A stretch of DNA of 64,000 nt, from contig JBAXVX010000009.1 in assembly GCA_037128705.1 (NCBI GenBank), forward strand, positions 42,620 through 106,619, in the 5' to 3' direction. Position numbers and translations under genes: made by a program. Shown here piece by piece: positions 61,056-62,392 of this stretch. Position 1 is the first letter of the stretch, and every line of letters begins with the position of its first letter. This stretch comes from Bacteroidota bacterium (GTDB taxonomy: Bacteria; Bacteroidota; Bacteroidia; Bacteroidales; FEN-979). The notes below the pieces were generated by a model, which saw only the letters and a list, made by a program, of their open reading frames with translations, did not search any database and was not told where the DNA came from.

Positions 61056-62231
61056 ATGCGACTATTTTTCATTCTGCCAAGGGTTCCCTATCCCACTGAA
61101 AAGGGAGATAAATTAAGGGCTTTTCACCAGATAAAACATCTGTCGAAAAACCATGAGATCATTTTGTGTGCCCTGAACGACGGAACCCTCCATGAGGATG
61201 CCATCCCGGTACTGAAAAAATATGTGAAAGCCATTCACATTATTTCCATCTCCAAGGCAACCATTGCCTTCAACCTGTTTAAAACATTGTTTTCGGATAA
61301 ACCCCTCCAGGTCGGGTACTTCTATAATGCATCATCGGCGGCCAAGATTCATAAACTTATTGAGCAATATAAACCGGATCACATTTTTTGCCAGTTGATC
61401 CGCGTTGCCGAGTATGTAAAGGGAATTCCGATTCCCAAAACACTCGATTACCAGGATGTCTTTTCAAAGGGAATGGAGCGCCGGCTTGAAAGCTCGCCTT
61501 TTTACATGAAGCCTTTACTGAAGATCGAGTACAACAGGTTGCTCAGGTACGAACATGCTGCCTTCGAAGCGTTTGACAACAAGATCATTATTTCAGAACC
61601 CGACCGTGATCTCATTCCCCATCCCGACCGCAACAAAATTGTGGTCGTGGCCAACGGGGTTGATACAACCTTCTTCAAACCGGTGGAACGGGAAAAGGAG
61701 TATGACCTGGTCTTCACAGGCAACATGGGTTACCCGCCCAACATAAAAAGCGCCGAATTCCTGGTTAATGAAATCCTTCCCGAGGTGCTGCATCACAAGC
61801 CTGACATAAGCCTGCTGATTGCCGGAGCCAGTCCGCATCTCCGTGTGATGGTCCTTAAATCGGGCCGGGTCGATGTATCCGGATGGGTTCCCGACATGCG
61901 TGAATGTTATTCCGGCGCCCGGATCTTCATTGCACCCATGCAGATCGGCACCGGCCTGCAAAACAAACTTCTGGAGGCCATGGCAATGCAGATCCCCTGT
62001 ATCACCTCTCCGCTTGCGTTCCAGGCACTGAATGCCCGCAGCGGTGAAGACATCCTGGTGGCAGAAACGCCAAAAGAGTATGCTGCACACATCCTGATGT
62101 TGCTTAACAATCCTGAAAAAGCCCGGCAAATCGCGCTGAACGGATACGAGTTTGTCCACCGGAATTTCACCTGGGAAACCGAGACCGGTAAAATCGACCG
62201 GCTCATCAGGAGGAAAACGAATTACGAATGA
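61056..62231 (+). CDS. Glycosyltransferase, GT4-like (GT-B fold)
   Basis: N-terminus MRLFFILPRVPYPTEKGDKLRAF, and a GTGLQNKLLEAMAMQIPCITS motif. The last residues, NYE, and the TGA stop are encoded by gaattac gaatgac heptads. Confidence 0.8.
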   Translation: MRLFFILPRVPYPTEKGDKLRAFHQIKHLSKNHEIILCALNDGTLHEDAIPVLKKYVKAIHIISISKATIAFNLFKTLFSDKPLQVGYFYNASSAAKIHKLIEQYKPDHIFCQLIRVAEYVKGIPIPKTLDYQDVFSKGMERRLESSPFYMKPLLKIEYNRLLRYEHAAFEAFDNKIIISEPDRDLIPHPDRNKIVVVANGVDTTFFKPVEREKEYDLVFTGNMGYPPNIKSAEFLVNEILPEVLHHKPDISLLIAGASPHLRVMVLKSGRVDVSGWVPDMRECYSGARIFIAPMQIGTGLQNKLLEAMAMQIPCITSPLAFQALNARSGEDILVAETPKEYAAHILMLLNNPEKARQIALNGYEFVHRNFTWETETGKIDRLIRRKTNYE

Positions 62232-62392
62232 CGAATTACGATTTACGATTTACGATTTACGATTTACGATTTTTTTACTTCATTACTTGTCACCTTGTTA
62301 CCTTGTTACCTTGTCACCTTGTTACCTTGTCACCTTGTCACCTTGTCACCTTGTCACCTTGTTACCTTGTCACCCTGTTACCTTGTCACCTT
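62219..62392 (+). repeat. Largest composite array: about 8 heptads, 2 ATTACT-like units and 13 octads GT(C/T)ACC(T/C)T
   Basis: The array reads gaattac gaatgac gaattac (gatttac)x4 gattttt ttacttc attactt, then 13 phase-perfect octads at 62289-62392. The C/T position of the octads reads C T T C T C C C C T C T C. It fills the gap between the GT stop and the ettA start. Confidence 0.95.

Follow-up and report, generated by a model that had tools for sequence, protein, structure and literature searches.

We analysed a 64,000-nt stretch of a Bacteroidota bacterium of the Bacteroidales lineage FEN-979 (GenBank assembly GCA_037128705.1, contig JBAXVX010000009.1, positions 42,620 to 106,619 of the forward strand), called the window below, and concentrated on the gap between a glycosyltransferase gene (GT) and ettA (energy-dependent translational throttle A), which is occupied by a composite array of tandem 7- and 8-nt units. 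Coordinates are window positions unless a contig is named; G000 denotes the source genome, G013 a sister species and L followed by a number the compared loci or assemblies. Genes were taken from a list of open reading frames (ORFs) and repeats from the sequence itself and from Tandem Repeats Finder (TRF); SNP stands for single-nucleotide polymorphism. The locus is composed as follows:

61029..61036, plus strand: TAnnTTTG box (Bacteroidetes-type -7) found by regular expression, a putative promoter as judged from the published consensus; 20 nt ahead of the GT ATG and the nearest such box upstream of ettA.
61056..62231, plus strand: GT4-type glycosyltransferase gene, 391 aa (ORF list; Pfam Glycos_transf_1; TIGR03087-like NCBIfam match below the cut-off).
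62152..62424, plus strand: spurious 90-aa ORF (ORF list), overlapping both real genes.
62219..62239, plus strand: three GAATKAC heptads (GAATTAC 62219-62225, GAATGAC 62226-62232, GAATTAC 62233-62239), the first block, family H (sequence; TRF period 7).
62240..62267, plus strand: (GATTTAC)x4, family H (sequence, TRF); a 7-nt deletion allele with three units is found in L084 and L085.
62268..62276, plus strand: GATTTTTTT, a decayed heptad plus T-run (sequence), the punctuation that closes H blocks at at least 10 loci.
62277..62288, plus strand: ACTTCATTACTT, 1.5 units of the CATTACTY octad, family B (sequence); C>T SNP at 62281 in some strains.
62289..62392, plus strand: 13 GTYACCYT octads in phase, family C (sequence, TRF); 9-12 in other assemblies.
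62393..62407, plus strand: unique 15-nt leader TAAAATTCTCCCCAA ahead of the ettA ATG (sequence), the same in all strains.
62408..64000, plus strand: 5' 531 codons of ettA (ORF list, TIGR03719), the gene extending beyond the window end.

The full-length ettA copy in L081 scores 937.9 bits against TIGR03719, the cut-off being 806.75. Direct reading of the octad tract confirmed the 13 phase-perfect octads that the first-pass annotation had described, with a third base running C T T C T C C C C T C T C (string CTTCTCCCCTCTC). Its formula GT(C/T)ACCTT holds for 12 of them, and the 11th octad (62369-62376) reads GTCACCCT and not GTCACCTT, which reveals a second C/T position at base 7. Similarly, the gap had been described as consisting of repeats throughout, and this applies to 161 of its 176 bases but not to the last 15 nt (62393-62407), which are unique. 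The repeats start inside the GT ORF, whose last 13 nt are also repeat units and whose TGA stop (62229-62231) lies within the second heptad. TRF scored the two array parts with 84 and 172, and the two-octad pattern GTYACCYTGTYACCYT occurs 18 times in the window compared to 0 times in each of 100 shuffles. With head-to-tail units of 7-8 nt and a length beyond chance the array falls into the class of long simple sequence repeats (SSR) or heptamer repeats; it is not a CRISPR, which has 24-48-nt repeats and unique spacers, as its units are contiguous and without spacers. The 90-aa ORF is indeed spurious, as had been proposed: it is open because the repeat strand has no stop except the TGA of GT itself, it shows no NCBIfam match, and no other ORF was found in the 176-nt gap. 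A second array of this type is present in the window:

46467..46556, plus strand: second composite with the block order H, T-run-like, B, C, between two minus-strand genes.

The two arrays align colinearly, block for block, so that the block order is common to both as the first-pass annotation had claimed, and in relation to transcription the second one is oriented opposite to the array at ettA.

Assemblies spanning the gap (NCBI, ENA and JGI) were retrieved by exact look-up of the GT protein, which is 100% identical in them, and over 6 kb their flanks show 0-68 SNPs relative to the window. The following alleles were found:

Window: octads CTTCTCCCCTCTC (13); GATTTAC x4.
L081: octads CTTCTCCCTCTC (12); GATTTAC x4; 0 SNPs compared to the window.
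L084 and L085: octads CTTCCCTCTC (10); GATTTAC x3; C>T at 62281.
L088: octads CTCCCCTCT.. (at least 10); GATTTAC x4; the contig ends within the array.
L082 and L083: octads CTCCCTCTC (9); GATTTAC x4.

The alleles differ in length by exactly 8, 24 or 32 nt in the octads and by 7 nt in the heptads. Across strains there is no change in block order, in the first two and last four octads (a rare CCCT unit among them) or in the 15-nt leader, and all variation is internal. We regard it as extremely improbable that length or composition of the array were made by the short-read assembly of a repeat. The whole gap, with 9-13 octads, is covered in five independent assemblies (NCBI, ENA, JGI) that agree on block order, the end octads and the rare CCCT unit, and for two alleles there are two recoveries each, made from different sources. 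On the other side, the k=31 contigs (Logan) from seven lake metagenome DNA runs reach both flanks at 8-21x and all break inside the array, so that its interior cannot be confirmed from them, several genome contigs end in arrays, and L081 carries 12 octads instead of 13 although it shows 0 SNPs over 27 kb, which leaves the exact octad number of a single assembly with an uncertainty of about one unit. The array thus exists, and strains differ in it by whole units; an artefact, which had been considered from the beginning, does not account for the array as such and is only partly excluded for its exact count. Contigs ending in arrays are present in G000 (C48:1-90, C35:36-185, C69:3-89, C77:73-157) and also in related genomes, and as this happens often, the repeats fragment short-read assemblies.

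The same mode of change was observed in a further 41 kb of the window compared among up to 10 assemblies, where all indels of at least 7 nt lie inside arrays and are multiples of 7, 8 or a 35-nt super-unit:

17563 and 52245: +7 nt.
42357: -8 nt.
25518: -14 nt.
26134-26189: -35/-36 nt.

No array was present in one strain and absent in another within these 41 kb and up to 10 assemblies. The ettA array is the longest in the compared stretch and, with five alleles, the most length-variable of about 12 window arrays; the composite at 46467-46556 is unchanged in length across 10 assemblies. All within-species changes at the ettA locus being unit-step would fit a pure in-place microsatellite, made by local duplication and slippage only, with the gene cassettes described below merely recruiting their arms from the repeat pool already present in the genome, so that their link to the arrays would tell nothing about origin. 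This reading, which we consider possible but rather unlikely, also draws on the AATG core that is common to the first block in many relatives and suggests an old array evolving in place, and on the finding that no PF05635 ORF or remnant lies at the ettA junction or beside solo arrays. The genome-wide order of the blocks speaks against it.

The genome of 3.94 Mb (46.8% G+C, 80 contigs) yields 440 period-7 and 254 period-8 TRF rows, corresponding to between 259 array groups in a strict scan and about 650 arrays if TRF rows are merged. Written on the strand reading TYAC, the unit families are:

H: GANNNAC (GATTTAC, GATATAC, GAATKAC).
P: CAATKAC.
F: CTAATGS.
D: GTCACGY, mostly as 29-35-nt super-repeats with T-runs between.
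B: CATTACTY.
C: GTYACCYT.

Among 50 same-strand composites of several families, 60 of 62 block transitions follow the order P/H > T-run > D or F > B > C. The rank was derived from the same data, but every pairwise count is independent of it, and these are 20:1 for B before C, 10:0 for H before D, 14:0 for H before B/C and 7:0 for H before F. H blocks close with CGATTTTTT(T) at at least 10 loci, different loci have junction variants in common, ACGATTTTTTT-ACTTCATTAC being one of them, and the 1.5-unit B block of the window is found again at G000 C6:78174-78242, the closest paralogous junction. The composite and not just its units is a recurring element, as the first-pass annotation had supposed, also in the sister species, and the block order is not random. 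Simple slippage cannot yield a fixed order and polarity of different repeat families, and independent origins of in-place microsatellites cannot give the same block order and the same transitional units (e.g. ...ACTTTTCACCCTGT...) at about 20 loci and in a sister species. The B-to-C junction pattern has 25 matches in G000, 9 in G013 (1 of 36 same-genus genomes) and 0 in 24 other families, and the repeat vocabulary is specific to this species group, being found in 2 of 61 genomes.

Within the octads all four variants are used genome-wide (99, 96, 65 and 63 times), the two C/T positions are independent, and the only correlation in variant order is found at lag 2 (0.675), which points to probable duplications of 16 nt. 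A code in the C/T pattern was rejected, as there is no fixed pattern, all four variants are used and the correlation is limited to lag 2; the pattern is an interspersion map of unit variants. In eukaryotic minisatellites such variant-repeat maps distinguish alleles by the interspersion of unit variants, and they resemble the present case in having two to four unit variants and internal gain and loss of units, whereas here the units are of 8 nt in a bacterial genome without meiotic recombination.

For the placement of the arrays we used crude gene calls (3095 ORFs, 92% coding), according to which 220 of the 259 strict array groups lie outside called genes. By TRF criteria arrays occupy 9.8% of the co-directional, 12.7% of the convergent and 7.7% of the divergent junctions, and per base they are 3-4 times rarer in divergent gaps. 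Between 41 and 46% of them begin within 5 nt of the upstream stop codon. After removal of the array the co-directional spacer has a median of 32 nt compared to 36 nt in array-free junctions, and the arrays are therefore additions to ordinary junctions. An array of a rarer type, in a promoter-only gap, is formed by GTGACGC heptads at 58224-58249, in the divergent gap between a minus-strand gene ending at 58214 and an lptF/G-like gene at 58351, and lies about 75 nt upstream of a -7 box at 58323.

The sense strand is G-rich and stop-rich in 83 arrays and C-rich in 49, with G-rich to C-rich ratios of 29:10 for D, 19:9 for C and 5:0 for BC (24:9 together) and 15:16 for H, so that the ettA array belongs to the minority orientation. 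The bearing of this on a Rho loading site or insulator, in which the C-rich, G-poor and unstructured 104-nt octad tract would recruit Rho behind the GT stop and uncouple the transcription of the two genes, is negative: a genome-wide bias towards G-rich sense behind genes runs the wrong way for a selected site, and ettA would need its own promoter while no -7 box is present in the gap. The composition of the tract fits a Rho utilisation site, with 35 C versus 13 G in the octads, a structure-free RNA (fold z of +3.7, see below) and an untranslated length above 80 nt, where at least 70 nt are required, but taken together we think such a site very unlikely.

Several other origins were considered and rejected. 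A replication-linked polarity fails as the array orientation does not track the local GC skew, general inverted pairs around host genes as same-family neighbours within 6 kb are inverted in 39 and direct in 44 cases, a RAYT/REP-like spread as the genome has no match to the Y1 transposase (PF01797) and the array no hairpin, and a reverse transcriptase (RT) origin as the two RT genes stand in a diversity-generating retroelement (DGR) and in a group-II-like/defence context, neither of them near arrays. The DGR (G000 C57:1472-6762) consists of a 1174-aa repeat-rich target, a 98-aa Avd-like gene and a 338-aa RT, without arrays nearby, and adjoins tail-fibre-like and integrase-like genes. The other RT, of 436 aa, is located in G000 C14:30669-39008 and has a helicase-like protein of 1722 aa and a WYL-like regulator as neighbours, a region that may be a defence island unrelated to the arrays.

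Arrays of 7-9-nt units are present upstream of ettA in about 22 of the 36 closest relatives (ettA at least 82% identical) and in 3 of 44 more distant ones, and the units at this junction differ by species (AATGCAGAC, TTTCACNA, TTTGAAY, CCAGTTAC, AATCGTA and others). In array-free relatives the GT-ettA junction measures -14 to 45 nt. L005 (2851-3006) has lost its whole array by one deletion with fusion of the gene ends: its GT ORF runs straight into the TTGAAC unit that, in the close relative L008, stands last before ettA. From the compact array-free junctions and this deletion it follows that the array is dispensable here and that the ancestral junction was compact. The sister species G013 is collinear with G000 at 76-93% DNA identity, and at orthologous junctions its arrays have the same orientation and a different block content: one junction with identical flanks reads P-H-T-B-C in G013 and H(31)-T-D-D-D in G000, another B-C(20+) and H4-T-B4-C3, respectively. 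For the GT-ettA junction of G013 the DNA search gave just one weak 50-nt match.

A different type of change is seen at the 3' junction of ettA, about 85-135 nt past the window end (G000 C80, about 106704-106760). Here the window strain carries an H array (ATTTACG ATTTACG ATATACG...) in C-rich orientation, and in strains about 1% diverged the same flanks enclose a D (D') array of opposite orientation (CGTGAC ACGTGAC GCGTGAC...), with TAA versus TGA as ettA stop (L081:5522-5573 versus L082:5498-5544). This is a replacement, which slippage cannot bring about, and such an exchange of family and orientation at one junction within one species also speaks against the purely local microsatellite. In L027 and L034 the first 170 nt behind the ettA stop contain H arrays followed by reverse-complement H arrays (GATTTAC.. 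..TCGTAAA) with no ORF between; these back-to-back arrays would be either arm pairs without cargo or hairpin-forming spacers.

With respect to the transcript, Rfam 15 gave 0 matches at E<=1 for 61800-62800 on both strands, and a scan of the GT-ettA gap found neither a terminator-like site nor a sigma-70-like promoter. TAnnTTTG boxes within 58150-62420 are present only at 58323 and 61029 and none of them in the gap, and ahead of the T7 run at 62270-62276 there is no stem of the kind that an intrinsic terminator would have. As the gap lacks a promoter box and the junction is compact in relatives, ettA is presumably co-transcribed with GT from the box at 61029. The sense RNA of the array is less structured than its shuffles (-19.9 versus -34.4 +/- 3.9 kcal/mol, z = +3.7), consists of 68% pyrimidines and contains a single ATG and a single stop, which both fall into the heptad with the GT stop. 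Selection for unstructured RNA was rejected, as permuting the letters of the units does not make them fold better and family D shows strong self-complementarity; the low structure is a by-product of composition.

A functional precedent is the (ATCTTTC)n repeat of hmw1A in Haemophilus influenzae, which pairs with a G-rich segment to form a hairpin processed by RNase III and so sets the adhesin level (PMC12721329). By analogy the length of the ettA array could act as a copy-number rheostat tuning ettA transcription or translation. As in hmw1A a heptamer array with a copy number varying in populations would be located in the 5' leader (here predicted), its position between promoter and start codon fitting if the box at 61029 is the promoter; the array is directly upstream of ettA, has the most length alleles in the window, and arrays are unusually frequent at this junction in relatives. 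Unlike in hmw1A there is no pairing partner, with no GGTRACAR array found in the transcription unit of the ettA array, and the sense RNA is without a hairpin whereas the hmw mechanism needs a long one cleaved by RNase III. As in addition close relatives have no array at all at the junction and the second composite is oppositely oriented relative to transcription, we consider such a rheostat quite unlikely.

Arrays of the same families were also found around small genes of the family PF05635, which encodes the S23p-type proteins of 23S rRNA intervening sequences (IVS). PF05635 genes are present in 56 of the 61 genomes. A 124-aa gene of G000 that is absent in G013 (C63:2388-2759; 119 bits) is flanked by inverted D arrays (C63:2307-2988), and a second one (C20:35439-35822; 136 bits), located between two genes for subunits of succinate dehydrogenase/fumarate reductase in the sdh operon, by inverted F arrays (C20:35380-35900), so that both IVS-type PF05635 genes of G000 bear inverted arms. 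In a census of 30 PF05635 loci of this clade of lake Bacteroidales (L119-L148), counting 6-9-nt arrays within 300 nt, 27 had arrays on both sides, and 20 of the pairs were inverted complements of one unit family and 0 direct. Arrays cover 21.3% of the bases within 300 nt of these ORFs and 1.1% in the remainder of the loci. A G-rich 5' arm was combined with a C-rich 3' arm in 22 of 23 loci, the reverse being never observed, and arm pieces of up to 60 nt pair at -34 to -118 kcal/mol compared to -11 to -47 for shuffles. In relatives, many PF05635 genes lie 60-250 nt from contig ends. The arms use C units in G005, G021 and G013, B in G004, D-like in G026 and F in G013 and G000, and the octad arms of L143 and L148 belong to the family of the ettA array. 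A cassette of G013 (C15:54300-55700, L149) directly follows a stop codon, opening with about 19 AAGGTRAC units and closing with about 8 of GTYACCYT, its arms being the octad of the ettA array and its complement. At the orthologous junction of G000, behind a PhoH-like gene (C54:7495-9036), a different 424-aa gene lies between two D arrays in direct orientation, and array-bordered junctions may be sites of gene turnover.

Compared to this the array at ettA has the unit family of such a cassette but neither a PF05635 ORF nor a partner arm; it is a solo array sharing units and polarity with cassette arms. It is tempting to regard the 7-8-nt arrays not as noise from slippage but as portable arms of selfish IVS-like cassettes, laid out as A-run, G-rich array, promoter, PF05635 ORF, C-rich array and T-run, with solo arrays and their fixed block order as footprints or seeds of cassette traffic at gene junctions and the arrays marking sites where small genes swap in and out. 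This idea is tentative and in our opinion improbable rather than probable, and in the library searched we found no paper linking PF05635 genes to such arrays.

Taking everything together, we favour, with a probability of about 0.6, that the ettA array is a solo copy of a lineage-specific 7-/8-nt repeat family with fixed polarity, which was added to a compact junction and now serves as a passive transcribed spacer. The addition to the originally compact intra-operon junction could have occurred by copying from another array, or the array could be the leftover of an arm-bearing cassette. It would then have evolved in place, with unit-step length changes by replication slippage or unequal exchange, and would be transcribed from the 61029 box within the GT-ettA mRNA. 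On this mRNA it would be a passive spacer, pyrimidine-rich and without structure, AUG or stops, separating ettA translation from the upstream gene and having no dedicated regulatory role. Several observations weigh against this view. The frequency of about 22 of 36 at the ettA junction is well above the per-junction rate of about 10% and could reflect selection for a long spacer. Slippage alone explains neither the 3' replacement nor the same block order at 50 loci. One metatranscriptome gave only repeat scraps and no flank coverage. Concerning the cassettes, no PF05635 ORF was found within 3 kb of ettA in 80 relatives and no PF05635 remnant beside solo arrays in G000 (E<=5), and neighbouring arrays of the same family are not preferentially inverted (the 39 versus 44 pairs within 6 kb given above). 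The ettA array may thus descend from a cassette, or the arms could instead have been recruited from the array pool.

To our knowledge, neither an origin nor a function has become accepted for the short intergenic heptamer repeats of bacteria, which have been on record since about 1990. Among them are the short tandemly repeated repetitive (STRR) sequences of cyanobacteria, reportedly described by Mazel and co-workers in 1990. TAACTGA repeats are known from Beggiatoaceae, cyanobacteria and five Bacteroidetes (MacGregor 2015, PMC4679880), larger assemblages of heptamer repeats within one spacer from Gramella, Aequorivita and Elizabethkingia (PMC4679880), and the intergenic heptamers and long SSRs of bacteria were treated by Mrazek et al. 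2007, as summarised in PMC4679880. No function has been established for heptamer repeats, with binding of S1, Csp or CsrA and gene rearrangement having been proposed (PMC4679880). The arrays described here share with this class tandem units, genome-wide non-coding copies and strain variation by whole units, and the ettA array also the filling of gaps beside start and stop codons by tandem 7-nt units, contigs ending in repeats and close relatives with shorter, repeat-free gaps. They differ in having several 7- and 8-nt families in one order and polarity at about 50 loci, a vocabulary confined to the 2 of 61 genomes and a variable orientation relative to genes.

The GGGNATC or GGGGA(C/T)T heptamers of Xanthomonas and Nostoc (Rehm et al. 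2015, PMC4692102) are likewise distributed genome-wide, mostly between co-directional ORFs and, per base, with under-representation between divergent ones. They are located no farther than 50 bp from stop codons and vary in copy number. However, their units are G-tracts forming quadruplexes with a preference for four copies, whereas the units here have neither G-tracts nor a preferred copy number. The IVS of the 23S rRNA of Coxiella burnetii contains an S23p ORF between terminal inverted repeats, which form a 28-bp stem that RNase III cleaves (Warrier et al. 2016, PMC4990558); PF05635 also comprises the Avd-like family (PMC10053308). Like this IVS the PF05635 cassettes of the clade have an ORF bordered by complementary terminal repeats able to form a long stem. 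In contrast, they are found between protein genes (e.g. in the sdh operon, G000 C20) and not in rRNA, and their arms are tandem 7-8-nt arrays of 30-200 nt instead of unique inverted repeats. The ettA array differs from an IVS in having no partner arm and no ORF.

In summary, the class of repeat at this locus is already known, and what is new is the fixed order of families with two periods, a vocabulary restricted to a species group and the finding that paired arms of PF05635 genes are built from the same units. The ettA locus is most likely a passive, fast-changing spacer. It supplies a clean allele series of unit-step change in natural populations and explains assembly breaks at gene junctions in this clade as well as the annotation of the spurious 90-aa ORF. 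The link to PF05635 turns a descriptive oddity into a testable hypothesis on how such repeats spread, and it also bears on the question of how selfish small genes can be inserted into operons without harm. If the cassette idea is true beyond this clade, it would provide the heptamer repeats of Bacteroidota, and perhaps those of cyanobacteria, with an origin and with an RNA-level mechanism that can be tested, consisting of a long stem, cleavage by RNase III and bidirectional insulation.

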